A DNA stretch of 64,000 bases from Pseudomonadota bacterium (GCA_003247575.1 QJZC01000058.1:101021-165020); one strand, 5' to 3'; numbered from the stretch's first letter, positions 12,598-59,380 are shown. The notes: generated by a model not told the origin, from the sequence alone. Numbers and translations are program-made.

Positions 12598-13311
12598 CTA
12601 GCGCGGCGAATGGGCCGCCAGATGCCGAACCGTCTGATCCTGCCGTCGTGCGAGATCGAACAGCATACGTCGCGCAAGAAGCGATGCCGCCACCCCGGCA
12701 GAAGACCCTAGAACCACCAACAGACTCAGCAGGTCCCTGGACGCAGGGGTCGCCACGCTCGAGAAGCTCACCATCCGATCGAGAAAGTTCATCGCGATCC
12801 AGAGGATCCACCAGAGCTTGAGATAGGCGGGCGTCGCCGGCGCGCCGACGGGATCGACTGCGCTGCACTCGAATACGTTGCGCACGGCGCGATACGGGAT
12901 CAGCAGGTTCGCGAACGGCACGAAGAACCACCAGATCATCGAACTTGGACTGAAGGCGACCTCACGGATGCCGAAGGCGCGAGCGTTCTGATTGGCTCTA
13001 TACAAGAAGCGAGCAAACAGGAAGGTCGTGACGAGGAACAGCACGATGCCGAAACCGCCCAGCCAGAGCTCCGCAGGTCCTTTGTCCTGGTCGCCACCCG
13101 CCTCGAGCAGACCGAGCACGCCATCGAGATGCCCCTGCAGCACGGACACACAGAGCACTACCGCGAATGCCGCGTAAACCTGCAGCCAGAAGCCGAGAAC
13201 GTGCGCCTGCCCCTGTAGCGATCGATAGGGGGGCGGTTCGAGCGCCGGCGCGGACTCGACCACGGAGCTCGGCGGCTGGTAGGGATTCGAGAGTTGTGAT
13301 GTAGCCGACAT
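12598..13311 (-). CDS. DUF4328-like integral membrane protein
   Basis: Track ORF 12598-13344. ATG at 13311 gives MSATSQLSNPYQPP.... SSMIWWFFVPFANLLIPYRAVRNVFE resembles the DUF4328 signature. Has 4-5 hydrophobic spans. Confidence 0.65.
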   Translation of the reverse strand: MSATSQLSNPYQPPSSVVESAPALEPPPYRSLQGQAHVLGFWLQVYAAFAVVLCVSVLQGHLDGVLGLLEAGGDQDKGPAELWLGGFGIVLFLVTTFLFARFLYRANQNARAFGIREVAFSPSSMIWWFFVPFANLLIPYRAVRNVFECSAVDPVGAPATPAYLKLWWILWIAMNFLDRMVSFSSVATPASRDLLSLLVVLGSSAGVAASLLARRMLFDLARRQDQTVRHLAAHSPR

Positions 13312-13413
13312 CCCGAATCCATTATCCGGACTCGTCCGCCGCACGACAACTCAGACGGTGCTCCCGAGCGGGTCTGATCCCAAGCCAGATGGCCCCCCGA
13401 GCGCCTCGCTGGG

Positions 13414-14259
13414 TCAGAATCCCTTGCTGCGCACCGACTCCACACGCGAGTCGCTCGCAGCTGCCGGGCTGGGCCCGAAGAGCGCGGCGCGGGCGTCGGG
13501 GTCCGCATAGAGGACGGCCTGCGTGTACGCGGCCACGAGGGCTGCGTAGAGGCCTCCATTCCCGGTCGGAGAGCCGACGCCCGTATGCGTGGCTCCCTTC
13601 ACCGAGAGCTGCGTCACCGGCACGTTCGCCTGATTGAAGAGACCGGATCCGTTGGCGCGCGAGCGACTGGCCCCACAAGGTGCGAGCCGATCATCCGAGC
13701 CACACAGCACCAGTGCAGGCCCCACCATGTCGCGACCATCGGACCGAGCCGTGAAGCGATTGTCCGGCTGCACCGCGATCGTGCAGACCACGCGTTCGTT
13801 GATCCGCGAAGCATTCACCGCTCCAGAGCCGCCCTGGGAGTGACCAGCGGCGCAGAAGCGATCCTGCACGTTGAACCCGCCGCTCGCGAGCTGATCGATG
13901 CAGTCGGAGAGGTCCGTTCCGTCGCCCGCCTGGGGCGAGTTCGCAGCCGTGACCTGTACGCCGAAGGAAGCGATACGAGTGAGGAGACCGGCGTACGTAC
14001 TCGGCGAGGCTCCGGTCCCGTTCGCCCAGCCCAGGCCTGGCTTGGGATCTCCAGCAGTCGAGCTCAGGAAGAGGGTGCAGCGGCCCGAGCGCAGGATCCG
14101 CACCGGTTGGGGCCCGAGCTGCTCGAACTTCGTGATCCCCACCGGCCGGCTCGCGCCACGCCCCAGGAACAGACCGTCCTCATCGCAGGCGGTCAGCAAG
14201 GCCGCACTCGCTGCTGCCAAGGCGCTTGCGACTGCACGACGCCGAATCAGACCGCTCAT
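13414..14259 (-). CDS. Lipoprotein alpha/beta hydrolase (lipase/cutinase/dienelactone-hydrolase-like)
   Basis: Track ORF 13414-14361. ATG at 14259 gives MSGLIRRRAV...ALLTAC (lipobox). Nucleophile elbow AAGHSQGGSG. A later GSDD and an ATHTG-containing segment are consistent with the Asp/His of a triad. It starts about 50 nt after the PKS stop. Confidence 0.75.
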   Translation of the reverse strand: MSGLIRRRAVASALAAASAALLTACDEDGLFLGRGASRPVGITKFEQLGPQPVRILRSGRCTLFLSSTAGDPKPGLGWANGTGASPSTYAGLLTRIASFGVQVTAANSPQAGDGTDLSDCIDQLASGGFNVQDRFCAAGHSQGGSGAVNASRINERVVCTIAVQPDNRFTARSDGRDMVGPALVLCGSDDRLAPCGASRSRANGSGLFNQANVPVTQLSVKGATHTGVGSPTGNGGLYAALVAAYTQAVLYADPDARAALFGPSPAAASDSRVESVRSKGF

Positions 14260-14312
14260 ACCCCCAGGCGTACCCGACACAACGCTACAGAGCAAGCGCG
14301 AAAGACGAGCAC

Positions 14313-17300
14313 CTAGTGCAGATCCGCCCGCTGGGACGGGCGCGTGACCGGTACGGTCCACTCAGCCGGAGCCGAGCGCATCAGGATCACCTCCACGTGA
14401 GCGCGCTCGCCGAATCGAAGCTCGTCGAGCAGGCACTGGACGCCGTCTTCGGGGTCGATCAGGCCGATCCCGCGGCGCGCATATTCACGTTCGAGCTCCG
14501 GAGAGACCATGCCGCCTCCGGCCCAGGGTCCCCAGGCCATCGTCACGACGCGCGCCCCCACTCGTTCCGCAAGTTGGCGCGAGTAGAGCGACAGAGCTTC
14601 GTTCGCGGCGGCATAATCGACCTGCCCACGGTTCCCGAACGTGCCTGCGACGCTGCCGAAGCTGACGAAGAACGCGAGGTCCGGGCGAAGCTCCGTGGCG
14701 AGGGTGCGGAACGCGCTCACCTTGGTTTCGAAGACACGCCGGAACGACTCCACGGTCTTGTCACGAATGAGCTTGTCCTCGAGCACGCCGGCCGCGTGAA
14801 CGACGCCATCGATGCGTCCGCGCTGCGTGTAGACCGCTCGAAGGACCGCCGCCAACGCATGTGGATCGCGCACGTCCACGCGGTGGTACTCGACACTCGC
14901 GGCGAGCTCCTCGAGAGCCGCGAGATTCGCCCGGATCTCGCGCGCGGCCAGCACCCTCGCCACTTCGGCCTCGATCTCTGCGGGCTTCCGAAGCCCGGCC
15001 GCTTCGATGATGGCGCGGCGCAGCTCGGGGGCGCCGGTCGCATGCGCGTAGTTCTCGGGCTCGGGCTCGCTCGGAAGCGCCGAACGACCGCAGAGCACGA
15101 CGTGGGCTCCGCTCCGCTCCGCGAGCGCGAGTGCAGCCCGGGCGCCGATCCCACGTGCTCCGCCGGTCACAAGAATCACGGCATCCGAGCCGAGCTGGAG
15201 CTGGTCGGAACGGGTCACATCGAGAGGCTCTTCCCGCAATAGCAGGGTCCGCCGCACGCCACCGGCACAGCCGACGTCCACACGATGATCCCCGTGCGAG
15301 AGCTCCGCGAGCAGTGCTTTCGCAATCGAATTCGGTGCATCCTCGGGATCCAGGTCGACAGCGCTCACGTGCGTGTCGGGGAACTCGCGGGCCAAGGTCC
15401 GGACGAGCCCGCGCACGCCGGCCGCCGCCTCGACCTCGCTCGCACGTAGCCCGTGCAGCAGCCCGAAACCACCTCCGAGACCCGTCGCTACGACCAGCTC
15501 GGTCGCGTAGGTCAGGGCACCACGCTTCAGATCCACGAAGATTCGATCCACCGGATAGCGCGGGCTCGCGCTCAACGCCCCGAGGTGTATCCAGGCTTCC
15601 CCTTCGGAGGCGGGATCGTCGGCTCCACACTCCGACACTCGCCCTCCACTCTGCTCGATCTGGAGCTCGAGCGCCTTCCGAAGCTCCTCCGCTCCACCGA
15701 GGATCCGGATGCTGCGCCCAGCCAGCGCCCGAGAGCCATCGGCACGGGATCCACGCGCAGCGATCTCTCCCGCCAGAGCCAGCTCGTAGCGAAAGCGGAG
15801 CGTACTTCCAGGCACCACGCGACCCGAGTCGATCTCCACCGGCTCCGGGGACGGACTTCGTGTGTCCAACACTGAGTTCGGCGAATCTTCGACCCCAGCC
15901 TGATCGGACTCGCGCGGTTCCTCCCCGTGCGCGTCGATCCAAGAGACCACCGCGCGCAACGTCTTGAGTCGAGCCAGCTCTTCGACGACGGCCTCGTCCA
16001 GCTCGCCATCTGCACCTCCCGGAAGCGCGACCCGTTCGGCAAGCTCTGCCAGGATCTCCATGCGCTTGATCGAATCGATGCTCAGGTCCGCTTCGAGATC
16101 CAGGTCGGGCTCGAGCATCTCGGCCGGGTATCCAGTCCGCTCGCTCACGATCTCGAGCACGGCTCGCATCAGCGCATCGCCGCTCAGGGTCGGATTCGCG
16201 GGCGCAGCGAGCTCATCGGGCGACGGCAGTGCTGAAGCAGCCGCTTCGGATGACGACGCGAAGGCGTGCGCGCCTGGAGTGGCGATCGGGCTCCCGCTCG
16301 CGGCGACTGCGGCGCGCTCCCGGGGTGCGGCAACCTCGGAGACCACCCGGACCTCGATCGGCTCTCCCAGATACCCCAGCATGACCTCACGCTGAGCAGA
16401 GATCAACTCGCGCATACCACGCAGGTACGTCTGTACGGCGACCTCACGATCGTCGCTTCCCGACTGCGACCCAGTGCGGGTGAGGACCACCGGAACGAGA
16501 GCGTTCGCAGGCCGCAGAGCCCCTTCGACCACCTCGCCGGAAGCGTCGCGCACAGTAAATCCGTTCAGCCGGTAGTGAGGCCGCGTCGCCGCGATGAGCG
16601 CCGAGTCGAGCTGGCACGCGCTGCGCCCTTCGAAGAGCGCCTGCGTGCGAATCGGTACGTCGAGCACCGCGAGTCGAGCAACGGCCCGCAAGACGGACTC
16701 GAGCGCGGGCTCACCGGGGACGTCGCAGCACACCGTGACGTGCGGTCGCTCTCCCAGAACCTTCTTCACCAAGCCCGTGAGCACCCGCCCGGGGCCTGCC
16801 TCGACGAAGATCCTGACCCCGTCCGCGTACATGTTCTCGATCTCTTCGCGAAACCGGACTGGACGCGCGACCTGCTGAGCCAGCAGCTCGGCCAGCGCAT
16901 CTGGATCGCGCGGATACTCTCGCGCGTTGCTGTTCGACCAAACCGGAAACTCGGGCGCCTGGACGCGAGTCTCGGCCAGACGTTTGCCCAGGCGCTCGGC
17001 TGCACCCGCCACGATCGGACTGTGGAATGCGCACGCGACCGGCAGCCGCCGTGCCGCGAATCCGGCGAGCTCCAGGAGCTCGAGCGCGCGGTCGATCGCT
17101 TCCGTGGTGCCCGAGATCACGATCTGGCGAGGGGCATTGTCGTTGGCGAGCACGACGTCGGAGACTCCCTCGAGCGCTAGCTCCACCTCGCCCGCGGATG
17201 CCTGCACAGCTACCATCGCGCCGGGATCGGCTCCCGCCGCCTCCAGGATCGCCAGAGCACGCTCGGAGCTCAGGGTGACGAGATCGGCTGGGGAGAAAGC

Positions 17301-20300
17301 TCCGGCAGCGCACAAGGCCACCAGCTCGCCATAGCTGTGCCCGGCGGCTACATCGGGCCGGATGCCGAACTCGCCGAGCAGAGCGTTGATCGCGAGCCCC
17401 ATGATACCGAGCGCCGGCTGCGCCACGCGCGTGTCGGTGACCGCCTGCTGCTGCGCTCGCTGCTCCTCGGGCGCGAACGCGGATGCGGGAAAGACGAGGT
17501 CTGTATACTCGGGCGCCAGCTCGAGGAAGCCTTGCAATTCGGGGAAGGCCACGAAGAGATCGGCGAGCATGCCCACACGCTGGCTGCCCTGCCCCGGAAA
17601 CAGGAAGCCGATCTTGCCTCGCCCGCTTTCCGAGCCAGCCTGCGGGCTGGCGATCGATGCCGCCGCGGCAGGATCGATCGCGTCCTCGCGGACGAATACG
17701 TTCGGCGCGCTACGGAACGCGGCCATCGGCTCCAGCTGATCGCGTAGCTCGTCCAGGCTCGAGGCGAGGGCGGCGATCTGAACCGGCGCCGCGGATCGTG
17801 TCGCGCAGGTGTAGGCGATGTCGCGTAGTCGCCACGGCCTCCCGAGCTGATCGTTTCGATCGAGTAGGCTGCGGAGCGCTGCCACCGAAGCCCGTGCAGC
17901 CTCGCGATCCTCTCCACACAGCAGCACGATCTCCACAGGCCAGTGCTTCAGGCCGCGCGCGGGCGCGTCCGCACCAGCATATGCGGAGAGCACCGAATGA
18001 AAGTTGCTGCCGCCGAAACCGAACGCACTCACCGCGGCATGCCGCCGTTCCGCGATCCACGGACGCGGCGAATGCGCGAAGTGGAACGGGCTCGTGCGTG
18101 GCTCGTAGTATGGATTCGGATGAGAGAGGTTCGCTGTCGGCGTACGCACGCGCGCGTAGAGTGAAAGCGATGCCTTGATGAGACCTGCGAGTCCCGCGGT
18201 GCACTTGGTGTGGCCGATCTGCGACTTGACCGATCCGAGCGTGCAGCTCGCGGCCTCGGAGCCCGCGTCCAGATAGAGCTCGGTGAGCGCAGCCAACTCC
18301 GTCCGGTCCCCAACCACGGTTCCAGTGCCATGGGCCTCCACCAGCCCCACTTCGCTGGGTGAAATACCCGCCTGCTCGTAGGCTCGAGCGAGCGCGAGCC
18401 GCTGCCCCTCCGGCCGCGGCGCAGTAAGTCCCAGGCTACGACCATCGCTCGAGGCACCCGAGCCACGCAGGACGGCATAGATGCGATCACCATCTCGCTC
18501 CGCATCCTCGAGTCGCTTGAGCACGATACAGGCGACCCCTTCTCCCAACGCAATCCCATCCGCGTCGCGGTCGAAAGTGCGACAGCGACCGCGACGCGAG
18601 AGTGCGTGCACACTGGAGAAGAGCAGGTAGTCTGCGATTCCATTGTGGAGATCCGCCGCTCCGCAGAGCACCATGTCGCAGGCTCCGCTGCGCAGCTCCT
18701 TGCACGACTGATCGACCGCCGCCATCGAGGTCGCACACGCAGCATCGACGGTGAAATTTGCGCCGCCTAGATCCAGCCGATTCGCTATGCGGCCAGCGAT
18801 CACGTTCGTCAAGACACCAGGAAACGAATCCTCCGTCAGGCGCGGAAGCTGAGCATCGAGATCGTCCGGCATTTCGCCACAGAACTGCGTAAACAGGGAG
18901 CGCAGTCCATAGGCGCCGCTCAGATCGGTCCCCGACTCCGCTCCGAAGATGACCGCGGTGCGCGATCGATCGAACTCGCGCTTTGCATATCCTGCGTCCG
19001 AGAGTGCGCGTCGCGCCATCTCCAGGCTGAGCAGCTGCACGGGGTCGATCGAGGCCAAGGAGCGTGGTGGAATTCCATAGTCCAGTGCGTCGAAAGGAAT
19101 CTCGGGCAGGAACCCACCCCACTTCGAGAGCGACTTCTCGCCGGCTCGCTTGCCCGTCGCCTCGGGATCATAGTAGGCGTCGATCGACCAACGCTCGGGT
19201 GGCACCTCGGAGATGGCGTCGTGCCCGTATACGATATTGGACCAGTACGTGTCGACGTCTTCTGCCTGCGGGAAGCATCCCGCCAATCCGACGATTGCAA
19301 TATCGAGTGGGCGTGCGGTCTCGGGAGACTCGAACACAGGCGTCTCGGACGCGAGAAATCGACTCCCGTCGCGGCTCACCCTAGCGTGTAGGTCTGCGAT
19401 GGCGACGACCTCATCATGCAAGGTCGCAATCTGGCCGATCATGAACATGCCATCGCTCAGCTGCTGCTCGGCGCTCACCTCGACGAGCGCTCCGCCATCG
19501 CGGCGCACTCCCTTGGTGGCAATGCGCAGCCGCCCGAGATTCAGCTCCTCGAGCGCAGCCCAGACCTCGTGTACGCTCGCCCCCTTGGCTGCGAGCTCCC
19601 GCTTCTGAGCATAGAACTGCTCGATATATGGGCTGTCGAGCACGCGGATCGCATGTCCCGGAGACGTCTCCAGCAAGACCGTACGCTCGGCCGCACAGAC
19701 CTGCTCCTGAAAGAGAGACTGCACGGCTCCCGAGAGCACGGCCTCGCGCGTCAAGATGTACGCCGACCCCATCAAAACACCGACCTTGGCACCACGCTCT
19801 GCAATCGCACCCGCAAGCGCGGCAACCATTGCCGCAGACCTTGCATCATGGATTCCGCCCGCGAACAGAACACACACGTCGGACAGGTCTCCGTACCGCA
19901 AGAGCTCCTGCGTCTGTGCCTCCCACAAGGCGAAGCTCGAACGCGGTCCAACGTGCCCACCACACTCGCGCCCCTCGAAGACGAAGCGACGTGCGCCGTC
20001 TTTGTAGAAGCTAGCCAGAAGTCCCGACGACGGTACGTGCAGGTAGGTAGGGATCCCGTCCTTCTCGAGCGCGCGCGCCTGCGATGGCCGTCCGCCCGCG
20101 ATCAGCGCGAACGGCGGACGCACACGGCGCACTTCGTCCAGCTGCGCTTCGCGGACCTCGGCAGGTACGAATCCGAGGATCCCGACGCCCCACGGGTTGT
20201 CGCCGAGCTGCGCGACCGTCTCGTCGAGCAACTGGCGTACATCCGAACCGGACATCAGGGCGAGCGCCAAGAATGGGAGGCCACCCGCTTCTGCGACCGC

Positions 20301-21293: not shown

Positions 21294-21674
21294 TCCACCT
21301 CCGTGGCACAGCTCGAGCGAGCAGCTCACATGTCCGACGGCGCGGGACATCGTCGGGCACCCGACGCCGCACCGACCACGCGCGCCCTCGGTCGAGCCCA
21401 TCGAATCGGCGATCATCGCAGTGTGTCGAAAACATCGAACACACCCTTTGCTGCGGATGCCAGTGCTCAGCCGACCACTCTCGAATCGATCGTCCTGGCT
21501 TCCAGCTGCAACACCAGTTACTGCAAGACGAGAGAACCGCAGCTTTCGCAACTCGCCTCGTTCAGCCTACCGTCCTGGCAGATGGGGACATCATAAGGAC
21601 CGGATAAAGTTTCCCTAACTAGTGGGACCTGCGAGAGCGAAGAACCGAATAATCCTTCACCGAGCGCGAGAGAC

Positions 21675-22358
21675 TCAGGCGGCGCTGCTGACGAGCCGGC
21701 CCTTTTCAAGCTGCACCAAACGCCCGGCAGCTTCCGCGGCTCGAGGATCGTGCGTCACCATGACGAAGGTCTTTCCTGACTCCCGGTTCAGAAGTTGCAT
21801 CAGTGCCAGAATCTCGTCCGCACTATCCCCATCGAGGTCGCCCGTAGGCTCGTCAGCGAGAAACAGCAGCGGATCGGTCACCAACGCGCGCGCGATCGCA
21901 ACCCGTTGCTGCTCGCCACCGGAAAGCTCCGTCGGTCGGTGATTGAAGCGATGCCCCAAGCCCACGATCCGCAAGGCCGCACCTGCACGCTCCCGGCGCT
22001 CTCGCGAGCTGAAAGAACGCAATAGTAACGGCAGCTCGACGTTCTCGATCGCACTCAACACCGGCACGAGATTGTAGAACTGAAAGACGAAACCGATCGA
22101 TCGGTTTCGCCAGACGTCGAGCTCCGGCCCGGTCAGATCCTGGATATCGTGCCCACCGATGCGCAAGCGTCCGGATGTCGGCTGATCCAGTCCTGCAATC
22201 AGATTCAGCAGGGTGGACTTCCCCGAACCGGATGGCCCCATGAGCGCGACGAACTCGCCCGCCTCGATCGTGAGCGAAAGGTCGCGCAGCACCGGAACTT
22301 CACTCCCACCGCGCTCGTATACCTTTTCGAGACCCGAGATTTCGACGAGTGCACTCAA
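21675..22358 (-). CDS. ABC transporter ATP-binding protein (MacB/LolD-type)
   Basis: C-terminal 227 codons of track ORF 21675-22844. Walker A GPSGSGKST, signature LSGGEQQR, Walker B LFLADEPTG. Proposed TTG start at 22358 forms TTGA with the upstream gene's stop. The exact start is uncertain. Confidence 0.85.
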   Translation of the reverse strand: MSALVEISGLEKVYERGGSEVPVLRDLSLTIEAGEFVALMGPSGSGKSTLLNLIAGLDQPTSGRLRIGGHDIQDLTGPELDVWRNRSIGFVFQFYNLVPVLSAIENVELPLLLRSFSSRERRERAGAALRIVGLGHRFNHRPTELSGGEQQRVAIARALVTDPLLFLADEPTGDLDGDSADEILALMQLLNRESGKTFVMVTHDPRAAEAAGRLVQLEKGRLVSSAA

Positions 22359-23926
22359 GGGGCTACCCGTACCTGGCTCCCGGTATCGAGATTGGGCGAC
22401 GGATTCTCGATGATGTACGTGCCCTCGGGCGGGCCCTCGACGAGCGCGACGTACGAAACCTCGTCTTCGCTGGCCGAATCCGTTCCGGATCCATCCGCGT
22501 CGTCGCCAGAGTCCGTGTCTCGGACTGCGCCGCCTGACGTACCTGAAACCGAAGCCTCCGCAACGGCGACTGCGGAGAAGCTCGCTCCATCCACGAGCGG
22601 CGGCCTCTCCGCGCGATCCGAGCTCACGTCGGCACTCTGCACGCGCGCCGTCCGTACGGGAATCCTCTGCACTCGACCCTCTTCGACCTTGAAGACGACC
22701 TCGCTTCCCTCTCTCTTCACCACCGACGAGGTCGGGACTGCGCGCGCCACACGAATCTCCTGGCGCGGCGCATAGCGCAGGAAGCGCACCTTGGAGGTCA
22801 TGCCAGGAAGCAGATCGCCGTCTGGCTCGGCGATGCGCACCCACGCCTGAACCGTCCCCTTGACCCGATCGGCCTGCGAGCTCACCCGAGCCAAGCGACC
22901 GACATAGCGGCTATTTGGCAGAGCCTCGGGCAGAACGAGCGCCGACATTCCCACCTCGAGCTTCCGCAGCTCGGTCTCATTGATCTCGAGTTCGATGTTG
23001 AGCTGATCCAGGTCTGCCAGCTCGACGACCGCGGTGCCCGGCATACCATCGGGCGTGATCGCGAGATTCAAGAACTCGCCCACGTCGCTCAGCTTACGCA
23101 CGACGGTGCCATCAAAGGGCGCCCTCAGCACGCGGTCCTCGAGCGCGACCTGCGCGACCTTGATGCGAGCCTGCGCTCGATCGAAGGTCGTCTGCGCACG
23201 ATCGAGGGCCGTCTGCGGGCGCACACCGCGCCGGAACAACTGGCGTGTGAGACTCAGCTCACGCTCGGCGTCCGCCGCCTCGGCCTGAACCAGTGCGAGA
23301 TTCGCGCGCGCCTCTTCGTCCTCGAGTCGGACGAGCAGGTCACCCCGCCGGACCGGCTGGTTCTCCTCGATTGGCATCTCGATGATGCGCCCCTGCGCCT
23401 TGCTGCTCACCACGATGCTGCGCAAGGGCGTGACATAACCGACTGCCGTCAGCACCACCGGCGGCACACCCAGATCTCGGCGCGTCACCGCGGTGAGCCG
23501 AACCTCGGGAATCTCGAGACGATCCCCGCGAAGCACGTACGAGCCACCGGCGAACACTCCCGAGCCGATGAGCAACAGCCAGAGCGAGCGCCGCAGGAAC
23601 CCGCGCTTCTTTCCCTTGGGAGCGCGGCGCTCTCGGCGGCGAGAGCGCTTGCCACCGGCGGATGCAGCGACGCCGAACGGCGAAGCCGAGCCGTCGCCCC
23701 CGGGGCTGGAGGACTCCTCGCCAGCAGGGCCCACGATGCGCAACTGCTTGAGATCTTCGCGAAGCTGTCCTTCGCTGCGTGCCGGCCGGTCAGCCATGGG
23801 CGCTACCGCGTCGTAGTTCGGACCAGCAGGAACGTAGGTCGAACCGGCAGAAACCGCTCCGAGCACCGGTAGCTGGTTCACCACGAGGGACCCGCGCCCA
23901 GCTGCGCTCGCACTGGACTCGACCAC
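22355..23926 (-). CDS. HlyD/MacA-type membrane fusion (periplasmic adaptor) protein with a long acidic C-terminal tail
   Basis: N-terminal basic stretch plus a TM span (LWLLLIGSGVFAGG). Lipoyl/hairpin motifs (GRIIEMPIEENQPVRRGDLLVRLEDEEA...LRAPFDGTVV). The tail is rich in D/S/G (DTDSGDDADGSGTDSASEDE). Start is GTG 23926 or ATG 23797. Confidence 0.8.
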   Translation of the reverse strand: MVESSASAAGRGSLVVNQLPVLGAVSAGSTYVPAGPNYDAVAPMADRPARSEGQLREDLKQLRIVGPAGEESSSPGGDGSASPFGVAASAGGKRSRRRERRAPKGKKRGFLRRSLWLLLIGSGVFAGGSYVLRGDRLEIPEVRLTAVTRRDLGVPPVVLTAVGYVTPLRSIVVSSKAQGRIIEMPIEENQPVRRGDLLVRLEDEEARANLALVQAEAADAERELSLTRQLFRRGVRPQTALDRAQTTFDRAQARIKVAQVALEDRVLRAPFDGTVVRKLSDVGEFLNLAITPDGMPGTAVVELADLDQLNIELEINETELRKLEVGMSALVLPEALPNSRYVGRLARVSSQADRVKGTVQAWVRIAEPDGDLLPGMTSKVRFLRYAPRQEIRVARAVPTSSVVKREGSEVVFKVEEGRVQRIPVRTARVQSADVSSDRAERPPLVDGASFSAVAVAEASVSGTSGGAVRDTDSGDDADGSGTDSASEDEVSYVALVEGPPEGTYIIENPSPNLDTGSQVRVAP

Positions 23927-24341
23927 TGCTCGCGTTTGCCGACGTATCTATCATCCTAATGAGTCATCCCTGCGATCGAAGCCGCAAGATCGCGTCCGTC
24001 ACGGAGAAACCGCGGTGGCGGACAGCGGACATTGCACAGCGACCCGTGGGACAGTCGCCGACCTTGGGGCCCGGCAAACCAGAATACCCCATCGACCCGT
24101 AGACTAGGCGATCTGCACGGCGGGCGGTAAAAATTGGTCCCTCGGTGCTCGCCTCTTCCGAAGCGCTGCACCCCCCTAGCAGCGGAAGCTTGAATCCCAA
24201 GCCCTGACGGTATCATCGACTCCCTCGCGGGGCGTTGAATTCGAGCTGAAATCTGCCTAACCCGGGCCCCGCTGCGCAGATCGCCGCCCGAGGCACGCGA
24301 GCCGCTCGCGCCGAGCGCGCGACCGCCCCGCATTCGCTCTG

Positions 24342-24375
24342 CACCTCCGGTCTCGGTCCACCTCCGGTCTCGGTC
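24342..24375. repeat. Perfect 17-bp tandem duplication (cacctccggtctcggtc x2)
   Basis: Read directly: 24342-24358 and 24359-24375 are identical. It lies in the 490-bp non-coding region upstream of the MFP gene. Confidence 0.9.
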
Positions 24376-24418
24376 GGACCTTCTGGCCCTGTCGCTCCGG
24401 GCCCATCGAGCTCGACGG

Positions 24419-25192
24419 TCACCTCGAGGCGCGCTCCTCCGAGCCCTTGGCTGCGCCCTGGGCAGAGCTCGGAGTGCGTGGCATCACACTGAACTGGTCC
24501 GATTCGTCGAAGATCCTCACGGGCTCCCAATCCCGCAGCTTCGAGAGCCGCGTTGGCTTGCGTGCCAGGAAGCCTGTAGGGTCCAGCACCCAGGGGTCAC
24601 CAGGCCGTACGGCCGAGAACCAAAACGTGACCATGTGGTAGTCGAACACCTGCGCGTCCGACCCGCGGCGCGAGCGCAGAATCGCGCGATAGATCTCTCC
24701 GCGCACAAAGCCCTGCTCGCGCAGGACCGAGAACGTCAGCAGCTCCCAGCCGTCGCAGTCGTCACGCCCCCCTGCCAACAGCTCGTCGAGGATCGGCCAG
24801 TCCTCGCCCTCGACATCGCGCCGATAGCCCACTCGGCTCGCGCGCTGCACGAAGCCCAGAGTGCGGGCGACGATGCGTTCCTTCAAATCTTGACGGAACT
24901 CGACCAGTGCCGCTTGCAGCTTCGAGTCCGGCCCCTGGGGCGGACCCTCGAGCGCCAGCTGCCGCTTCGTCGCCTCCGCGAGCCGTTCCGATGCCTGCCA
25001 CAGGCGGATGCGAGCATGGAATCCCAGAACATCAGGATCGGACCCCGCGAAAAACTCCCACTCGGCCGCGGACTGCGGCACATCGGAGGGAAGCTGCACG
25101 CACGCTCCGAGTAGAGCGAACCCGACTAGGCCGTACGCGCGTCCACAACGGAGGAGATGCGACCACGAATGAAGCAAGATTCCTTCCCCCAT
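24419..25192 (-). CDS. Lipoprotein, tentatively transglutaminase-fold cysteine peptidase-like
   Basis: Lipobox FALLGAC. Ordered Cys/His/Asp candidates DDCDGWELL ... DYHMVTFWF ... VLDPTG match the transglutaminase-like C-H-D pattern. The assignment rests on pattern only. Confidence 0.45.
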   Translation of the reverse strand: MGEGILLHSWSHLLRCGRAYGLVGFALLGACVQLPSDVPQSAAEWEFFAGSDPDVLGFHARIRLWQASERLAEATKRQLALEGPPQGPDSKLQAALVEFRQDLKERIVARTLGFVQRASRVGYRRDVEGEDWPILDELLAGGRDDCDGWELLTFSVLREQGFVRGEIYRAILRSRRGSDAQVFDYHMVTFWFSAVRPGDPWVLDPTGFLARKPTRLSKLRDWEPVRIFDESDQFSVMPRTPSSAQGAAKGSEERASR

Positions 25193-25240
25193 AGACGTGA
25201 GTTGCTCGCAGGCGGTGGTCGGACGCTACGATAGGGCACC

Positions 25241-25993
25241 ATGAGCTTCACGCATCACCCGGAAACGCGCGACCAGACCATCGGCTGTGGACGCCCCGTC
25301 GAGGCGGCGCCCTCCCGAGGTGATTCTCTCCCATTTTCATCAGAGGCGGGCCCCGGACGCGCGGCCGTGCACCGCATAGGAGCCCACGCCTCTGGCTCTT
25401 GCACGATTCGCCGAACCTGGGGCATCCACAACTGGCTGCTGGCCAGCCTGATCGCGTGGTCGCTCGTGGCCCACGCTCTACCGGTTCGCGCCGAGTCGAT
25501 CGAGGGCGTTCAGTTCTCCCCGCTGGTCGAGTCGGGGGGCGTCGAGCTCGAACTGAACTCCGTAGGCCTGCTCCGCTACATGGTCTTCATCAAGGCCTAC
25601 GTCGCCGGCCTCTACCTGGGGCCGGGCGTCGAGCCCGAACAGATTCTCCAGGACGTCCCGCGCCGCCTCGAGATCGAGTACTTCTACGCGATCGACAAGG
25701 AGGACTTCGCCTCCTCGACGATCGAGGCCATCCGTCGGAACGTCGGTAGCGAAGCCTTCGGCCAGATCGAGGACAGCGTACAGCAATTCGCACGGCTCTA
25801 TCGCTCCGTGAAGCCTGGTGATCGCTACGCGCTGACCTATCTACCCGGAACTGGCACCGAGCTCGCGCTCAACGGCGAGCCGCTCGGTGTCGTCGCCGGA
25901 GCCGAGTTCGGGAGCGCAGTCTTCGCCATCTGGTTCGGCCCGCAGGAGATCGACGAAGATCTGAAGGACAGCCTGCTCAAGAAGCGGCGCTGA
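25241..25993 (+). CDS. Chalcone-isomerase-fold (CHI-like) family protein, secreted
   Basis: GVELELNSVGLLRYMVFIKAYVAGLYLG plus the downstream EIEYFYAIDKEDF pattern is typical of CHI-like domain proteins. Signal-like WLLASLIAWSLVAHALPVRA/E. The true start may be internal (for example GTG 25367). Confidence 0.65.
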   Translation: MSFTHHPETRDQTIGCGRPVEAAPSRGDSLPFSSEAGPGRAAVHRIGAHASGSCTIRRTWGIHNWLLASLIAWSLVAHALPVRAESIEGVQFSPLVESGGVELELNSVGLLRYMVFIKAYVAGLYLGPGVEPEQILQDVPRRLEIEYFYAIDKEDFASSTIEAIRRNVGSEAFGQIEDSVQQFARLYRSVKPGDRYALTYLPGTGTELALNGEPLGVVAGAEFGSAVFAIWFGPQEIDEDLKDSLLKKRR

Positions 25994-26057
25994 GCCTCAC
26001 CTCGCTCCGGGTTCGGCGCGGGCACGGGGATTCGCACCCGGCTCCGCGCGCTCGCGC

Positions 26058-26945
26058 TCACCCCTCGCGAGGGCCGACCGACGAAAGCGACTCGAGGGCC
26101 AGGTAGAGCGCGTGGGTGCCCTTGCGCCCTTTCCCCTGCGCGCGGAGCGCCACGTAGAGCTGATGCACCAGTGCGAGCCCAGGCAGCGCGAGGCCCATGC
26201 GCGCGCTCTCGGCCAAGGCGATCTCCATGTCCTTGATGAAGTGCTCTACGAAGAAGCCCGGCTCGAAATTGCCGTCGAGCACGCGCGGCGCCAGGTTCTC
26301 GAGCGTCCAGCAGCCCGCGGCTCCACCACCGATCGAAGCGAGCACCTGGCTCAGATCGAGGCCGGCTCGGCGCCCGTAGAGCAAGCTCTCGCAGACTCCG
26401 ATCATGGTGCCCGCGATCGTGATCTGATTACACATCTTTGCATGCTGCCCGGCGCCCGGACCGCCCTGAAACACGATCTGTTTGCCGAGGCATTCGAGCA
26501 GCGGCCGCACGCGCTCGAACACCTCACGCTCGCCGCCGACCATGATCGACAGCGATGCATTGCGCGCACCGACATCCCCGCCGGAAACCGGCGCATCCAA
26601 GACGTGCCCGCCACGCGGAGTCGCTGCCTGCGCGATCTCGCGCGCCAAGCTCGGGCGCGTGGTCGTCATATCGATCGCGACCGCACCGGGAGCCAGCGCG
26701 CCGAGAATCCCTGCTTCACCGAGGTAGATCGCGCGCACGTCATCGGGGAATCCGACCATCGAGAACACGACCTCGGCCTCCTGCGCCGCAGCGGCAGCCG
26801 ACGAGGCCCAGATCGCACCCTGCTCGAGCAACGGCTCCGCGCGAGCGCGCGTACGCGAGAAGACGCACAGCGAATGCCCCGCTCGCAGCAGATGCTCGCA
26901 CATGGGCAGTCCCATGACGCCGGTCCCCACCCAACCGATGCGCAT
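26058..26945 (-). CDS. NAD(P)-dependent 3-hydroxyisobutyrate/6-phosphogluconate-dehydrogenase-family oxidoreductase
   Basis: [24 protein letters not shown] (Rossmann GxGxxG) and DAPVSGG are hallmark motifs of the family. 295 aa. Confidence 0.85.
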
Positions 26946-27222
26946 ATTCCCTCCGCGTGCTGCGCTCGCTTCGAGCCGGAGCTCGAAGCCGACCTTCCCG
27001 AATCGGTGCGAGTCTCCCGCATCGGAAGAGACCCCGCTACCGTGCCCAGCGCGCGGGGGTGCTACCCTGCTGCGCGAAGGGACCTTCCACGGCCATGCTC
27101 ACCGGAGACAGCAACCGCACCGAACGAGCCGTAGCCAGCCGGCTCGAGGTGGCCTCTACCGCCTCCACGAGGCTCCCCGACCCGAGAGGCGAGGCGAACT
27201 CGTCCCCGCAGAAGCTCTCGCC

Positions 27223-28065
27223 GTGATTCGCCAGGGCCTCCGCTCGGTCGGGCTCCTGCTCGGGCTCGCAGTCGGATCCGTACTCGGCCCCGCATCCGCG
27301 GGGCTCGCCCAGGAAGCGAATGCCACGGGTGCGTCCGACCCAGACACAGTCTCCACGGCTGCGACCGGTGCACTCGGGCGCATCGAACCGGACCGCGGCG
27401 TGCGCAGCATCGCCGGGCCGCCGCGACCTGCCGTAGTGATCGACGAGCTTCGTGTCGAAGAAGGCGACGTCGTGAAGCGCGGCGATGTGCTCGCACTGCT
27501 GCAGGGCATCTCGCTGCAACAGGCCGATGTCGAGCGGGCCCAGGCGGAGCTCGCGCAGGCCGAGCGCGAGCTTTCTCGGCGGGAGGGATTGCGGCGCGGC
27601 GGCGCAGCTCCGGACACGGAGCTCGAGGCCGCGCGCCTCGCGCGCGACGTTGCGCGGGCTACCTTGGCCAAGGCCCAGGCGGAGCTCGAGCTGTCTCGGG
27701 TGCGGGCACCGCTCGACGGACAAGTGCTCGAGATCCATGCGCGCGAAGGCGAGCGCGTGGGTCCGGAGGGGATCCTCGATCTCGGCGACACGTCCGCCAT
27801 GTTCGTCGTGGCCGAGGTATACGAGACCGAGATCGGCGGGATCCAGATCGGGCAGCGCGCACGGATCCAGAGCCCGGCGCTACCCCGAACTCTGCGCGGC
27901 AAGGTCGAGCGCATCGGCCTCAAGATCGGCAAGAAGGACGTCCTGGGTACCGATCCGGTGGCCGACACCGACGCGCGTGTGGTCGAGGTCGAGATTCGGC
28001 TGGACGACCCGACTCCGGCGGCACGGCTCACCAACCTGCGAGTAGACGTCGTCTTCGAGCCCTGA
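27223..28065 (+). CDS. devB: DevB-family ABC-exporter membrane fusion protein
   Basis: Track ORF 26902-28065. Its 5' part overlaps the divergent dehydrogenase gene, so the in-frame GTG at 27223 (VIRQGLRSVGLLLGLAV..., TM) is proposed as the start. GALGRIEP...VRAPLDGQVLEIHAREGE...DARVVEVEIRLD is typical of DevB-type adaptors. Confidence 0.75.
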   Translation: MIRQGLRSVGLLLGLAVGSVLGPASAGLAQEANATGASDPDTVSTAATGALGRIEPDRGVRSIAGPPRPAVVIDELRVEEGDVVKRGDVLALLQGISLQQADVERAQAELAQAERELSRREGLRRGGAAPDTELEAARLARDVARATLAKAQAELELSRVRAPLDGQVLEIHAREGERVGPEGILDLGDTSAMFVVAEVYETEIGGIQIGQRARIQSPALPRTLRGKVERIGLKIGKKDVLGTDPVADTDARVVEVEIRLDDPTPAARLTNLRVDVVFEP

Positions 28066-28075
28066 GGAGCACCGC

Positions 28076-29233
28076 GTGGCGCGTCACATCCCGATCGCGT
28101 GGCTGCAGCTACGTCGCGACAAGCTCCGGCTCCTGGTCGGCGTCGCCGGAGTCACCTTTGCCGTCATTCTCATCTTCATGCAGCTCGGCTTTCAGAGTGC
28201 CGTTTACGAGAGTGCGACCCGCTATCACCGCAGCTTCGACTACGACCTGGTACTGGTCAGCCCCAAGACGCCGTTCATCGGCTTCCCCGAGGGCTTCTCT
28301 CGCCGTCGCCTCTACCAGGCCCTGGGCGTCGCCAAGGTCGAGAGCGTGAGCCCGGTCTACATCCAACAAGGCTTCTGGAAGAACCCGTGGACCTTCGGCG
28401 CACGCAACATCGTCGTCATCGGAGTGGACCCCGCCCGGCGCAACTTCGCGCGTTCCGACATCGCCGACCAGCTGCGGCGGGTCCGACGCGAAGACGTCGT
28501 CCTGTTCGACGGTCGCTCCAGGCCCGAGTTCGGTCCCGTGGCCGCGCGCTTCGCGGAGCAGGGAGGAGTTCGCACCGAGGTCAACGACCGCCGCATCCGT
28601 GTCGATGGCATCTTCGAGCTGGGTACGTCGTTCGGCATCGACGGCAGCTTGATCACCAGCGACCTCAACTTCCGCCGGCTCTTTCCCGATCGCGCGCCGG
28701 GCCGAATCGATCTCGGCCTGATCCAGCTGACCGAGGGCGCCGACATCCGTGCGGTCCGCGCGGACCTCGAGGGCGCGCTCGAGGACGACGTGCAGGTTCT
28801 GACTCGGAAGCAGTTCATCGAGCGCGAGGTCGCCTATTGGTCCAGTACCACGCCGATCGGATACGTCTTCGGGTTCGGGGCGATCATGGGGCTCGTGGTA
28901 GGCGCCGTGATCGTCTACCAGATCCTGTTCGCAGACGTCTCTCAGCATCTGCGCGAATACGCGACCCTCAAGGCAATGGGCTACTCGAACCGCTTCCTCT
29001 CGAACGTCGTTCTCCAGGAGTCGGCGATCCTGTCGATCTTGGGCTATGCACCCGGAATCGCCGTGACCTGTGGGCTCTATGCCGTGACCGCGGACGCGAC
29101 GCGTCTACCGGTGGAGATGACGGCCCCGCGGGCGTTGGCCGTCTTCGCCCTCACCTGCGGAATGTGCGGCGGCGCCGCGCTCATGGCCCTGCGCAAGGTG
29201 CGAGCTGCCGATCCAGCGGAGATCTTCGGTTGA
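28076..29233 (+). CDS. devC: DevC-family ABC-exporter permease (FtsX-like)
   Basis: MARHIPIAWLQLRRDKLRLLVGVAGVTFAVILIFMQLGF, then a large periplasmic loop and three C-terminal TM spans (FtsX topology). GTG start has GAGGAG 6 nt upstream. Confidence 0.85.
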   Translation: MARHIPIAWLQLRRDKLRLLVGVAGVTFAVILIFMQLGFQSAVYESATRYHRSFDYDLVLVSPKTPFIGFPEGFSRRRLYQALGVAKVESVSPVYIQQGFWKNPWTFGARNIVVIGVDPARRNFARSDIADQLRRVRREDVVLFDGRSRPEFGPVAARFAEQGGVRTEVNDRRIRVDGIFELGTSFGIDGSLITSDLNFRRLFPDRAPGRIDLGLIQLTEGADIRAVRADLEGALEDDVQVLTRKQFIEREVAYWSSTTPIGYVFGFGAIMGLVVGAVIVYQILFADVSQHLREYATLKAMGYSNRFLSNVVLQESAILSILGYAPGIAVTCGLYAVTADATRLPVEMTAPRALAVFALTCGMCGGAALMALRKVRAADPAEIFG

Positions 29234-30621
29234 GCGCGCCGCCGATCGAGATCGAGCAGGTGAACTACGCGTACGGCGAGGGCAACCTGCGCCGTCAGGT
29301 GCTCTTCGATGTGAGCGCGATCATCCGCACCGGCGAGATCGTGATCTTGAGCGGGCCCTCTGGGTCCGGCAAGACGACCCTGCTGACCCTGATCGGTGCA
29401 CTTCGCTCGGGTCAAAAAGGCAGTCTCCGCATCTTGGGTCACGAGCTCCGCGACGCCGACGAGCAGACCTTGACGGAGGTACGCCGCGAGATCGGCTACG
29501 TGTTCCAAGCGCACAACCTGCTCGAAGCCCTGACCGCGGCGCAGAACGTCGAGTTGGGCCTGCAGCTCCACGACGGCTGGGCCGCCGACGCACGCAAAAA
29601 ACGTGCGGAGGAGCTCCTCGAGAGTGTCGGTCTCGAGGGCTTCGCAGCGCGCCACCCCTCGCAGATGTCGGGTGGCCAGCGACAGCGCGTAGCCGTCGCT
29701 CGCGCGCTGGCCGGCGAGCCGCGCATCCTGCTGGCCGACGAGCCGACCGCTTCGCTGGATCGCCACACGGGGCGCGAGATCGTCTCTCTGATCCAGCGAC
29801 TCGCGCGCGAGCGCGGCGTGACCGTCGTGCTCGTCACCCACGACTCTCGCATCCTGGACATCGCCGATCGCATCCTCTCGCTGGAGGACGGGCGACTGAG
29901 CTCGTTCATGAGTGCGGTCACGACCGACACCCAGCATCTCTGGAGCCTATTGGCTCGGGACATCCAGCACGGCGAGCTGGTGCGGCGCGTCCGAGAGATC
30001 GAGGCCGACCGCTTCGCCGATCTGCTCAAGCAGGTCACGGAGGAGACGCAGGAGCTGGTGGCCATGGTGGACCTCGCTCAGAGCCAGACGTTCGACAGCA
30101 TGCTCGCTCAGGTGCTCGACGCCTTCGCGCTCAAGGCGGGCGAGCTGCTCGGCGCCTCGCAAACGCGCGTCTACCTGATGGACGAAGCCAAGCGCGAGCT
30201 CTTCTCGCTGGCCTCTGGATCCGACTCTGGATCAGAGACACCGCTCGAGATGCGCGTCTCGCAGGAAGCGGGGATCGCCGGCAAGGTCGCCGCGTCGGGG
30301 ACGACCCTGCTCCTCGACGACGTAGGCTCCGACCCCGCGTTCCATCCGGGCGCCGATCTCGGACAGCCCGGCCAGCGGCTTCTGACGACCCCACTCTCCG
30401 ACTCTACGGGCAGCGTTTTCGCGGTACTCGAGTTGGGACGACCGCAGCAGGCGCCCACTTTCACGCACGAGGATGAACAGCGGATCCAGGACCTGACGCA
30501 CTCGCTGTCTACCGTGCTGGAGTCGTGGTTCCGGATGAGTTGCAGCTGTCGCGTGGATCGAGGACTGCGGGAGGGCCGCTGCTGCGGCCAGCCCCATCCA
30601 CCCGGGACGGAGTGCCCCTGA
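29230..30621 (+). CDS. devA: DevA-family ABC ATPase fused to a C-terminal GAF domain and a Cys-rich tail
   Basis: C-terminal 463 codons of track ORF 28099-30621. TTG at 29230 forms TTGA with the devC stop. Walker A GPSGSGKTT, signature MSGGQRQR, Walker B LLADEPT. After about residue 270 there is a GAF-like pattern (...TRVYLMDEAKRELFS...GIAGKVAASGTTLLLDDV..DP.F......LLTTPL...GSVFAVLEL). The tail is SCSCRVDRGLREGRCCGQPHPPGTECP. Confidence 0.8.
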   Translation: MSAPPIEIEQVNYAYGEGNLRRQVLFDVSAIIRTGEIVILSGPSGSGKTTLLTLIGALRSGQKGSLRILGHELRDADEQTLTEVRREIGYVFQAHNLLEALTAAQNVELGLQLHDGWAADARKKRAEELLESVGLEGFAARHPSQMSGGQRQRVAVARALAGEPRILLADEPTASLDRHTGREIVSLIQRLARERGVTVVLVTHDSRILDIADRILSLEDGRLSSFMSAVTTDTQHLWSLLARDIQHGELVRRVREIEADRFADLLKQVTEETQELVAMVDLAQSQTFDSMLAQVLDAFALKAGELLGASQTRVYLMDEAKRELFSLASGSDSGSETPLEMRVSQEAGIAGKVAASGTTLLLDDVGSDPAFHPGADLGQPGQRLLTTPLSDSTGSVFAVLELGRPQQAPTFTHEDEQRIQDLTHSLSTVLESWFRMSCSCRVDRGLREGRCCGQPHPPGTECP

Positions 30622-55286: not shown

Positions 55287-56915
<1,629 letters not shown>

Positions 56916-59364: not shown

Positions 59365-59380
59365 GGGCACGTGCCTTGCT
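59365..59380 (+). promoter_or_regulatory. Sigma-54 (-24/-12) promoter of the minor-pilin operon
   Basis: GGGCACGtgccTTGCT compared with consensus TGGCACG-N4-TTGCW. GG at 59366-67 and GC at 59378-79 have the canonical spacing. It lies about 30 nt upstream of the ATG at 59410. Confidence 0.6.

Follow-up and report, generated by a model that had tools for sequence, protein, structure and literature searches.

A bacterial locus that probably combines the eroded core of a two-subunit lipid synthase cluster with unrelated neighbours

The region at positions 12598–30621 of the 64-kb stretch of DNA analysed here (the window) is probably a composite, in which the eroded core of a lipid synthase cluster, consisting of the genes MFP1, ATPase1 and PKS1, lies beside unrelated neighbours, and not a single system. 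The core likely derives, by gene loss, from a two-subunit 'secondary lipid synthase' cluster of PfaA/HglE/ArsA-like type, a kind that is widespread, and the locus is an unremarkable, degenerate example of a class that is known but uncharacterised. MFP1, ATPase1 and PKS1 are the sole cluster genes retained in the window; each is intact, and constraint is not visibly relaxed.

Absent from the window, even as fragments, are the permease, PKS2, the small ACP, the releasing hydrolase, the GT1 glycosyltransferase and the methyltransferase. The ACP, alpha/beta-hydrolase, GT1 and methyltransferase of the cluster gave no tblastn match in the window at E<0.01, and no KS, CLF or DH gene besides PKS1 was found within the 64 kb. 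These absences cover 64 kb of a 168.6-kb contig, and the rest of the genome could hold PKS2, the FtsX genes, GT1 or a thioesterase. With no permeases, no PKS2 (the carrier of DH and PPTase) and none of the ACP, releasing hydrolase, GT1 and methyltransferase genes, the locus is by itself insufficient to make or export a lipid. A first-pass annotation had read the region as one lipid synthesis-and-export island. This is not borne out, as the hydrolase, DUF4328, CHI-like and DevBCA genes are unlinked to the PKS in relatives and partners are missing. Its gene positions do hold, as do most of its domain calls, according to profile searches, and the gene calls for the PKS, DUF4328, ATPase, CHI-like, DevC and DevA-GAF proteins match the public record exactly.

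The PKS1 protein

PKS1 (14313–21293, minus strand, as are its domains) is an intact gene for an iterative type I FAS/PKS subunit of 2326 aa, identified by Pfam and NCBIfam matches, with the domain order ER1-ER2-KS-AT-ACP-(psiKR)-KR. ER1 (aa ~20–270; 20484–21236) is the first of two FabK/NMO-like domains and has PDB FabK matches (E 2e-11). Its FabK catalytic His is replaced by Arg, and the motif ESGGR is found family-wide. ER2 (aa 311–638; 19380–20363) is a FabK/PfaD-like enoyl reductase domain (TIGR03151 FabK, PF03060 NMO) with an invariant ECGGH motif. The KS (aa 664–1056; 18126–19304; PF00109, PF02801) has its Cys-His-His triad in place, in the motifs DAAC, EAHGTG and KSQIGH. The AT (aa 1230–1521; 16731–17606; PF00698, E 1e-37) is predicted to be malonyl-type by its motifs GHSYG and AFHS, and the single ACP (aa 1711–1755; 16029–16163; PF00550) carries the PUFA-type motif LSIDSIKR. 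Ahead of the KR catalytic domain (aa 2038–2258; 14520–15182; PF08659, E 1e-36) lies a KR structural subdomain rather than a DH; the last 782 aa of PKS1 match only KRs in the PDB. No DH, TE, R or PPTase domain was found in PKS1.

The description of PKS1 as PUFA/Hgl-style and as having no TE or R domain thus stands, but the N-terminus has two FabK/NMO-type domains where one had been called. The PfaA/HglE likeness is also upheld, in that the top NCBIfam match is PfaA, although TIGR02813, at 923.7 bits, falls short of its 1010.1 cut-off, and the match is confined to KS-AT (aa 663–1547). Neither the four to six tandem ACPs of PfaA nor the partner genes PfaB, PfaC and PfaD are found in the window.

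All the catalytic motifs of PKS1 are intact. With respect to the sister locus L001, dN/dS is 0.18 overall (KS 0.07, ER2 0.08, ACP 0.09), compared with 0.17–0.20 in neighbouring genes; these values are rough because dS is saturated (about 1.2), and that of PKS1 mostly reflects the period that predates the gene losses. Among 519 near-invariant family columns, seven are altered in PKS1, where the spread across 44 sequences is 0–22. There are 152 unique substitutions on the window branch vs 122 on the L001 branch, an acceleration that is not significant (relative-rate chi-square 3.3).

The cluster in related genomes

The best 120 homologs of PKS1 have the same architecture and align over their full length with 48–71% identity; at least 588 genome stretches match PKS1, across Actinomycetota, Myxococcota, Bacteroidota and Holophagae. 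The usual cluster, as found in 102 related loci, pairs PKS1 with PKS2 (KS-AT-DH-PPTase); its further genes encode a small ACP, an alpha/beta-hydrolase, a GT1 glycosyltransferase and a methyltransferase. PKS2, the sole carrier of DH and PPTase in the cluster, is present in 92 of these loci, the hydrolase in 70, GT1 in 68–69, the ACP in 67 and the methyltransferase in 43. PKS1 has the N-terminal ER followed by KS-AT-ACP-KR that typifies the two-subunit synthase; the adjacent PKS2 and the accessory set of ACP, hydrolase, GT1 and methyltransferase are not in the window.

PKS1 matches subunit 1 of the two-subunit secondary lipid synthases of types M/N (Shulse and Allen, 2011), a putative assignment by shared organisms and architecture. 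Taxa of types M and N include Frankia/Parafrankia, Streptomyces, Chryseobacterium and Chitinophagales (PMC3098273), and homologs from these same taxa share the PKS1 architecture. The class is probably that termed hglE-KS by antiSMASH, a name taken from the literature.

Readable context is limited to a few close relatives, namely L001, L082, L083 and L106. In an NJ tree, L082, L083, L106 and the window form one clade, in which the cluster additionally encodes an MFP and a LolD-like ATPase, with two FtsX permeases as well where these are visible (L082). The gene order in L082 is MFP-ATPase-FtsX-FtsX-PKS1-ACP-hydrolase-GT-MT, with PKS2 further on, detached and inverted; in L083 it is PKS1-PKS2-MFP-ATPase, and in L106 PKS1-PKS2-ACP-hydrolase-GT-MT-MFP-ATPase.

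The sister locus L001, whose PKS is 71% identical to PKS1, carries this PKS cluster in a decaying state. The 3′ end of its ATPase gene (97% identical) lies directly upstream of the PKS, and a frameshifted 3′ piece of FtsX2 occupies the slot of a 381-bp gap in the window. In L001 the hydrolase is reduced to its C-terminal third, GT1 is intact and the methyltransferase is a fragment; beyond this fragment come the ion channel, GT4 and M48 genes that the window likewise has.

The exporter genes and the sequence upstream of PKS1

MFP1 (22355–23926, minus strand) encodes an intact membrane-fusion (periplasmic adaptor) protein (TIGR01730, 154 bits vs a cut-off of 95), whose real start is probably at 23797. 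Over its full length it can be aligned with the L082, L083 and L106 MFPs, and it has two low-complexity insertions that are lineage-specific. ATPase1 (21675–22358, minus strand; PF00005, E 9e-37) is a LolD/MacB/DevA-like ABC ATPase that falls under every curated cut-off (LolD 243 bits, DevA 218 bits). Its Walker A, LSGGE, Walker B and H-loop motifs are all present, and dN/dS relative to L082 is 0.15.

The link of the PKS to these two genes is real and conserved. Orthologs of both are found within the PKS clusters of L082, L083 and L106, where the ATPases are 76–77% and the MFPs 47–59% identical. Of the two exporter sets previously described, only the second is complete, since this one has no FtsX/MacB permease. 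The intergenic gap of 381 bp (21294–21674, minus strand) is at the position of two FtsX permease genes (about 2.3 kb) in L082, and tblastn with the L082 FtsX1 and FtsX2 proteins found no permease remnant in the window (E<0.01). Of the ATPase, permease(s) and MFP that make up a MacB/Lol-type (type VII) exporter, the permease is thus absent from the window.

Within the gap is a conserved element (21557–21618, minus strand) of the form GGGAAACTTTATC - about 32 nt - TAGGCT, in which the starts of the boxes are about 45 nt apart. L001 has the two boxes at equal spacing, as does L082 between FtsX2 and the PKS; the element is absent from L083 and L106. It may be a promoter or a regulator site of the PKS gene.

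Neighbouring genes

Downstream of PKS1 is a gene for a lipoprotein alpha/beta hydrolase (13414–14259, minus strand) with the lipobox LLTAC, a weak PETase-like Pfam match, and similarity to the 2FX5 lipase and PETases (1e-21). It is of the secreted cutinase/lipase/PETase-like type and lies outside the PKS cluster, and is dissimilar to the hydrolase of the usual cluster. The gene for a DUF4328 membrane protein (12598–13311, minus strand; PF14219, E 7e-20) is likewise outside the cluster. Together the two fill the slot that holds the GT1 segment in L001. Their identities and coordinates were correctly given at first; their membership in a PKS system was not, as neither has a homolog near a PKS in the related loci examined.

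On the other side of MFP1 is a lipoprotein of unassigned fold (24419–25192, minus strand; lipobox LLGAC), earlier called transglutaminase-like. It has no Pfam or PDB match up to E = 5 and an unusable AlphaFold model (pLDDT 37), so that only the lipobox and a Cys/His/Asp pattern seen by eye speak for that putative fold. The CHI-fold call at 25241–25993 (plus strand) proved sound (Chalcone_3, PF16036, E 1e-34; 120.2 bits vs a gathering threshold of 27); the long open reading frame has a signal-peptide-like stretch at aa 61–84. This gene is not near a PKS in the 102 related loci, nor is it found in related DevBCA loci. Between it and devB sits a gene for a HIBADH-type NAD(P) dehydrogenase (26058–26945, minus strand; PF03446, PF14833) that the first-pass annotation omitted.

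The devB-devC-devA(GAF) operon (26902–30621, plus strand) consists of three contiguous genes and is, as had been proposed, a complete ABC exporter with a GAF domain on its ATPase. All three proteins score above the NCBIfam cut-offs: DevB (26902–28065; TIGR02971, 211.3 bits vs 129), whose real start is probably further downstream, DevC (28076–29233; TIGR01185, 451.8 vs 290.35) and DevA-GAF (29230–30621; TIGR02982, 318.1 vs 295.8, plus GAF_2). No outer-membrane factor (TolC partner) was seen among the window open reading frames scanned. DevBCA-GAF is common elsewhere. In the three closest DevA-GAF loci (L103, L104 and L105) the three-gene unit is kept, the flanks differ and no PKS is nearby. The suggestion that DevBCA is tied to the PKS, as in the hgl-dev system of Nostocales, does not appear to hold, with no PKS-DevBCA adjacency in any related locus. 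Conserved PKS-exporter synteny is therefore found for MFP1 and ATPase1, but not for DevBCA-GAF, DevB and DevC homologs being never near the PKS in the 102 loci. The CHI-like, HIBADH and DevBCA-GAF genes are neighbours independent of the PKS.

Possible function and fate of the core

No product of types M/N or of the hglE-KS-like class is known in the literature searched, and because of this we infer both the chemistry and what the exporter does. In complete clusters, PKS1 (ER-ER-KS-AT-ACP-KR) and PKS2 (KS-AT-DH-PPTase) would iteratively extend a long, largely reduced acyl chain, built from malonyl units on the ACP. The small ACP and the alpha/beta-hydrolase would pass on or release the chain, and GT1 and the methyltransferase would decorate it. 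In the clade of the window, a MacB/Lol-type pump of MFP, LolD-like ATPase and two FtsX permeases may take the amphiphile out of the inner membrane. As complete relatives have GT1, a glycolipid that is made and pumped out is a reasonable reading for the family.

That everything here works as a single island, with the PKS producing a long-chain (hydroxy)lipid for export by MFP1/ATPase1 or by DevBCA-GAF, is very improbable. DevC, which is just 4 kb from MFP1, could here stand in for the permease, and the hydrolase, DUF4328 and CHI-like proteins could be accessory lipid-handling factors. All the genes fit into 18 kb, five of them share one orientation, the PKS-hydrolase gap is only 53 bp, and the DevBCA is bona fide. 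ATPase1 and MFP1 are intact with no adjacent permease and may for this reason use a permease encoded elsewhere. However, homologs of the hydrolase, DUF4328, CHI-like, DevB and DevC proteins are never near the PKS in related loci, and in L103, L104 and L105 the DevBCA-GAF genes form a self-contained trio whose flanks are unrelated. L103, which shares its sample of origin with the sister PKS contig L001, has no MFP1, CHI-like or HIBADH gene within 5.6 kb of devB. Being of secreted cutinase/lipase type, the hydrolase is unable to release a cytoplasmic ACP thioester. DH, PPTase and GT1 are absent from the window.

For the eroded core, we lean slightly towards a PKS1 that is still functional and is helped by dehydratase, PPTase and release functions encoded elsewhere in the genome. 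Somewhat less probably, PKS1, ATPase1 and MFP1 have lost their function as this lineage sheds the cluster, and owe their intact state solely to deletions that were recent and clean. The partners for a full reduction cycle, ACP activation, release and transport are all missing from the window, and L001 is visibly losing the same cluster, which therefore appears dispensable in this clade; the slight excess of unique substitutions on the window branch points the same way. Against this are the uninterrupted 6.98-kb open reading frame with every catalytic motif, the conservation of near-invariant columns at a level typical of the family, the lack of a significant rate acceleration, the conserved upstream element, the equally intact ATPase and MFP genes, and the retention of ATPase and PKS1 in the window and L001 alike. 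Perhaps, but this is unlikely, a minimal, stand-alone PKS1 outlived the loss of PKS2, is kept by selection and borrows the dehydratase and PPTase of primary FAS, with MFP1/ATPase1 re-wired to another permease, e.g. DevC; if true, this would represent a new, reduced lipid synthesis-and-export module.

Comparison with known systems

DevBCA of cyanobacteria exports a PKS-derived glycolipid. The Nostocales system (HglE/D/C/G with HglT, and DevBCA-TolC) resembles L082 and L106 in having a PfaA-like iterative synthase, a glycosyltransferase and a MacB-type exporter with an MFP. The window differs in that its true DevBCA homolog, 5.6 kb from PKS1, is not conserved with the PKS and is GAF-bearing, and in that PKS1 has a tandem, N-terminally fused ER and one ACP. 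In addition, the cluster's own exporter is LolD/FtsX-like and not DevBCA, and GT1 is absent from the window.

The likeness to the PUFA synthase PfaABCD is seen in the best NCBIfam match of KS-AT, the ACP motif and the FabK/PfaD-type ER. PKS1 differs from it by the single ACP and by the lack of DH/isomerase domains, a CLF subunit and PfaB.

The type I fatty acid synthase ArsA/ArsD (type P) of Azotobacter vinelandii makes C22–C26 acyl chains for the phenolic lipids of cysts. It shares with PKS1/PKS2 relatives a single-ACP PfaA-like subunit and a second subunit with a PPTase, a putative likeness by organisms and architecture, with the ArsA and ArsD domain order as reportedly given by Miyanaga et al. 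(2008). In contrast to ArsA/ArsD, there are no type III PKS partners in the window or relatives, which have GT1 and a methyltransferase instead, and no type III PKS or ArsD-like gene was found among the annotated window open reading frames. Types M to T cluster together by KS phylogeny and PPTase motif (PMC3098273).

With respect to MacAB-TolC and LolCDE (type VII), the window has no permease gene and no visible outer-membrane factor. An MFP is present, ATPase1 is nearest to LolD, MacB and DevA, and the orthologous operon of L082 has two MacB_PCD+FtsX permeases, like LolC/LolE.

Gene organization and the polyketide synthase

The window locus is a degenerate member of a known, chemically uncharacterised class of gene clusters. 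The gene layout described in the first-pass annotation is real. Five minus-strand genes encode a membrane-fusion protein (MFP1; 22355–23926), a LolD/MacB/DevA-like ABC ATPase (ATPase1; 21675–22358), a PKS of 2326 aa (PKS1; 14313–21293), an alpha/beta hydrolase with a lipobox (13414–14259) and a DUF4328 protein (12598–13311). Further on are a lipoprotein (24419–25192), a Chalcone_3/CHI-like protein (25241–25993), a HIBADH-type dehydrogenase missing from that annotation (26058–26945, minus strand) and, beyond it, devB-devC-devA, all three of which score above the NCBIfam cut-offs, with a GAF domain at the DevA C-terminus. Six of these genes are called in the same way in the public record. The lipoprotein, earlier assigned a transglutaminase fold, has no family match, and an AlphaFold run without an alignment gave a pLDDT of 37.6.

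PKS1 has the domain order ER1-ER2-KS-AT-ACP-psiKR-KR, where psiKR is the KR structural subdomain, and contains no DH, TE, R or PPTase domain. Its last 782 residues match KR structures alone, which rules out a hidden DH between the ACP and the KR. Instead of the single N-terminal NMO domain first described, there are two FabK/NMO-type domains (aa ~20–270 and 311–638; ER1 at 20484–21236 and ER2 at 19380–20363, minus strand), and this tandem didomain is common to the whole PKS family. The ECGGH motif of ER2 is invariant. ER1 evolves about three times faster and reads ESGG-R at the position of the catalytic His, with Leu or Gly in some members and His only rarely; ER1 may be non-catalytic or have another role.

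The best curated family for PKS1 is PfaA, with a score under the cut-off and with KS-AT alone covered. The best 120 homologs have a common architecture, are 48–71% identical to PKS1, and come from Streptomyces, Nocardia, Actinomadura, Parafrankia, Myxococcota, Acidimicrobiales and Sulfidibacter. Species-representative genomes gave at least 600 pattern matches, at least 588 of which encode a relative, and the matches listed include Bacteroidota (Chryseobacterium, Pedobacter, Chitinophagales), Holophagaceae and Oligoflexus. A metagenome scan with the PKS found nothing closer than 54%. The taxa of the PKS1 homologs are those in which secondary lipid synthases of ‘type M’ and ‘type N’, both uncharacterised, were described; the same study placed these with the type P ars system of Azotobacter (Shulse and Allen, 2011; PMC3098273). 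Genome-mining papers report clusters of this kind as ‘hglE-KS’ with the product unassigned, and in a 2026 overview the list of known secondary lipids still amounts to a handful.

The canonical gene cluster

Cluster content was determined over 102 loci by clustering the ORFs of the fetched loci (a filtered ORF set) and then searching with reference genes. The partner subunit PKS2 (~1430 aa; KS, AT-like, PS-DH and PPTase) is present in 92 of the 102 loci, an alpha/beta-hydrolase (Abhydrolase_1/Thioesterase-like) in 70, a GT1 glycosyltransferase (UDPGT/EryCIII-like) in 68–69, a small ACP of ~100 aa in 67 and a large methyltransferase protein in 43; these counts are minima, because contig ends cut many loci. 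What emerges is a very common cluster class with a well-defined core of PKS1, PKS2, ACP, hydrolase, GT1 and methyltransferase.

Judging from PfaA/Hgl/Ars-type synthases and MacB/Lol-type pumps, whose workings are established, a complete cluster would assemble a long reduced acyl chain on its ACP; this chain would be released or transferred, and then glycosylated and methylated. In the window's clade an MFP-coupled type VII ABC pump would expel the product.

Further genes, namely Acyl_transf_3, SDR and WS/DGAT genes, PapA_C-type genes or condensation-type acyltransferase genes, occur in some of the complete relatives (17475–21123 in locus L082, 617–4357 in L106 and 24760–27311 in L080), and therefore the family products may be acylated sugars or esters, not simple glycosides.

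The exporter of the window's clade

In an NJ tree the window PKS groups with five homologs (P0002, P0003, P0004, P0005 and P0006), and orthologs of MFP1 and ATPase1 lie inside the cluster in every member of this clade with readable context. Locus L082 (PKS 60% identical) has the order MFP-ATPase-FtsX-FtsX-PKS1-ACP-hydrolase-GT1-MT-acyltransferase-SDR-WS/DGAT, with PKS2 inverted and further on; L083 (56%) has PKS1-PKS2-MFP-ATPase, and L106 (56%) has PKS1-PKS2-ACP-hydrolase-GT1-MT-MFP-ATPase. Their ATPases are 76–77% identical to ATPase1, and their MFPs 47–59% identical to MFP1. The first-pass annotation had staked its reading on synteny between the PKS and an exporter in relatives, and for MFP1 and ATPase1 such synteny is found in all three loci. 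Of the two exporter sets it described, the MFP1-ATPase1 set is without a permease. In one clade the cluster has gained a Lol/MacB-type pump dedicated to it, in support of an amphiphilic (glyco)lipid product that is exported.

MFP1 carries two low-complexity insertions (aa ~70–105 and ~425–490) that are lineage-specific and not found in the orthologs, and its translation probably begins 43 codons downstream of the annotated start.

Cluster erosion

Both flanks of the sister locus L001 (PKS 71% identical) match the window in synteny. Upstream is the 3′ end of the ATPase gene (97% over 38 aa), and downstream are the GluR0-like channel gene, the GT4 gene (92%) and the M48 peptidase gene. L001 is a snapshot of cluster decay, in which PKS1 and GT1 are intact amid pseudogene fragments, i.e. 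a frameshifted 3′ remnant of FtsX2 (170–649), the C-terminal third only of the cluster hydrolase (8092–8361) and a 77-residue piece of the methyltransferase (9559–9789). The fragments are 50–62% similar to L082, about the same as the intact genes of L001, and from this we infer that the decay of L001 is recent and that the same genes were lost independently in the window's lineage.

In the window, the 381-bp gap between the ATPase and PKS genes shows no permease trace, and the slot after the PKS is occupied by the lipoprotein hydrolase and DUF4328 genes, which resemble nothing in L001 or the other related loci. The hydrolase is similar to secreted enzymes of the lipase, cutinase and PETase types (2FX5, 1e-21). 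As a secreted lipoprotein of the cutinase family it does not serve a cytoplasmic ACP as thioesterase, and it was rejected in that role for the PKS. The remaining ORFs of the 64-kb window contain no DH, PPTase, GT1, KS or outer-membrane factor, and FtsX is found in DevC only. The window locus is not self-sufficient, because it is without a DH, a PPTase, a release enzyme and permeases. Together, the window and L001 illustrate the course of cluster erosion, in which the largest gene survives longest. The window locus is a degenerate copy in an uncultured Gram-negative genome and offers little as a model for identifying the product.

The present state of PKS1

The three surviving cluster genes are intact. 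ATPase1 has the full set of ABC motifs, MFP1 aligns end-to-end with its orthologs, and all catalytic motifs of PKS1 are in place (KS Cys-His-His; AT GHSYG and AFHS; ACP DSI; the KR Rossmann motif with Lys, Ser, Tyr and Asn; ER2 ECGGH). With dS saturated, PKS1 dN/dS against L001 is 0.18 (KS 0.07, ER2 0.08, ACP 0.09), and values for neighbouring genes are similar (M48 0.17, channel 0.20). Near-invariant family columns are changed at 7 of 519 positions in the window PKS1, within a range of 0–22 over 44 sequences (leave-one-out). A relative-rate test of the window against L001, with L082 as outgroup, gives 152 versus 122 unique changes (chi-square 3.3, not significant). These sequence comparisons point to a PKS1 under no relaxed constraint, which does not by itself prove present-day function.

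We lean slightly towards a PKS1 that still works with partners encoded elsewhere. That PKS1 is instead a recently orphaned relic has a little under an even chance.

Upstream of PKS1, the boxes GGGAAACTTTATC and TAGGCT, separated by ~32 nt (starts ~45 nt apart), are kept in the window (21557–21618, minus strand), L001 (689–750) and L082 (~6467–6516) and are absent in L083 and L106; the element is possibly a promoter or a regulator site. Hits in a promoter/terminator scan do not exceed those in shuffled sequence. The sole match in an Rfam search is a tRNA, and therefore no known leader or riboswitch lies 5′ of the PKS.

DevBCA-GAF and other neighbours

The ‘two-exporter lipid island’ of the first-pass annotation combines one eroded cluster with neighbours unrelated to it. 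In none of the 102 family loci is a homolog of DevB, DevC or CHI encoded within 10 kb of the PKS, and therefore the adjacency of the PKS and DevBCA-GAF genes in the window is best read as coincidence. In the three closest DevA-GAF loci with context (L103, L104 and L105), devC and devA(GAF) are adjacent. L103 and L105 each have a clear DevB upstream of this pair, whereas in L104 it is detected only in part. These loci have different flanks, and no PKS, MFP1, CHI or HIBADH gene is nearby. L103 and L001 come from the same sample.

DevA ATPases that end in a GAF domain (window 29230–30621) form a large, widespread family of ~450-aa proteins. Such fusions are common, with at least 120 protein clusters matching at no less than 49% identity and 93% query coverage, some of them named from Planctomycetota and Myxococcota. 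The family suggests ligand-gated control of DevBCA-type pumps.

The block at 8562–12589, which encodes the M48 peptidase, the GT4 (MraY/WecA-like) enzyme and the GluR0-like ligand-gated ion channel (SBP_bac_3 domain), is syntenic with L001 and is flanking genome outside the lipid cluster. A tRNA-Ser(CGA) gene (33242–33331) and genes for a 1595-aa NAD-glutamate dehydrogenase (33463–38250), GroEL (55287–56915) and two pilin-like proteins with an N-terminal methylation motif (59371–61675) are ordinary Gram-negative chromosomal context.

The long devB ORF (26902–28065, plus strand) shares 44 bp with the start of the HIBADH-like gene, which is divergent to it. The 100-aa N-terminus encoded by the devB ORF is not conserved, the DevB of L103 is 263 aa in length, and the true devB start is probably downstream of the ORF start.
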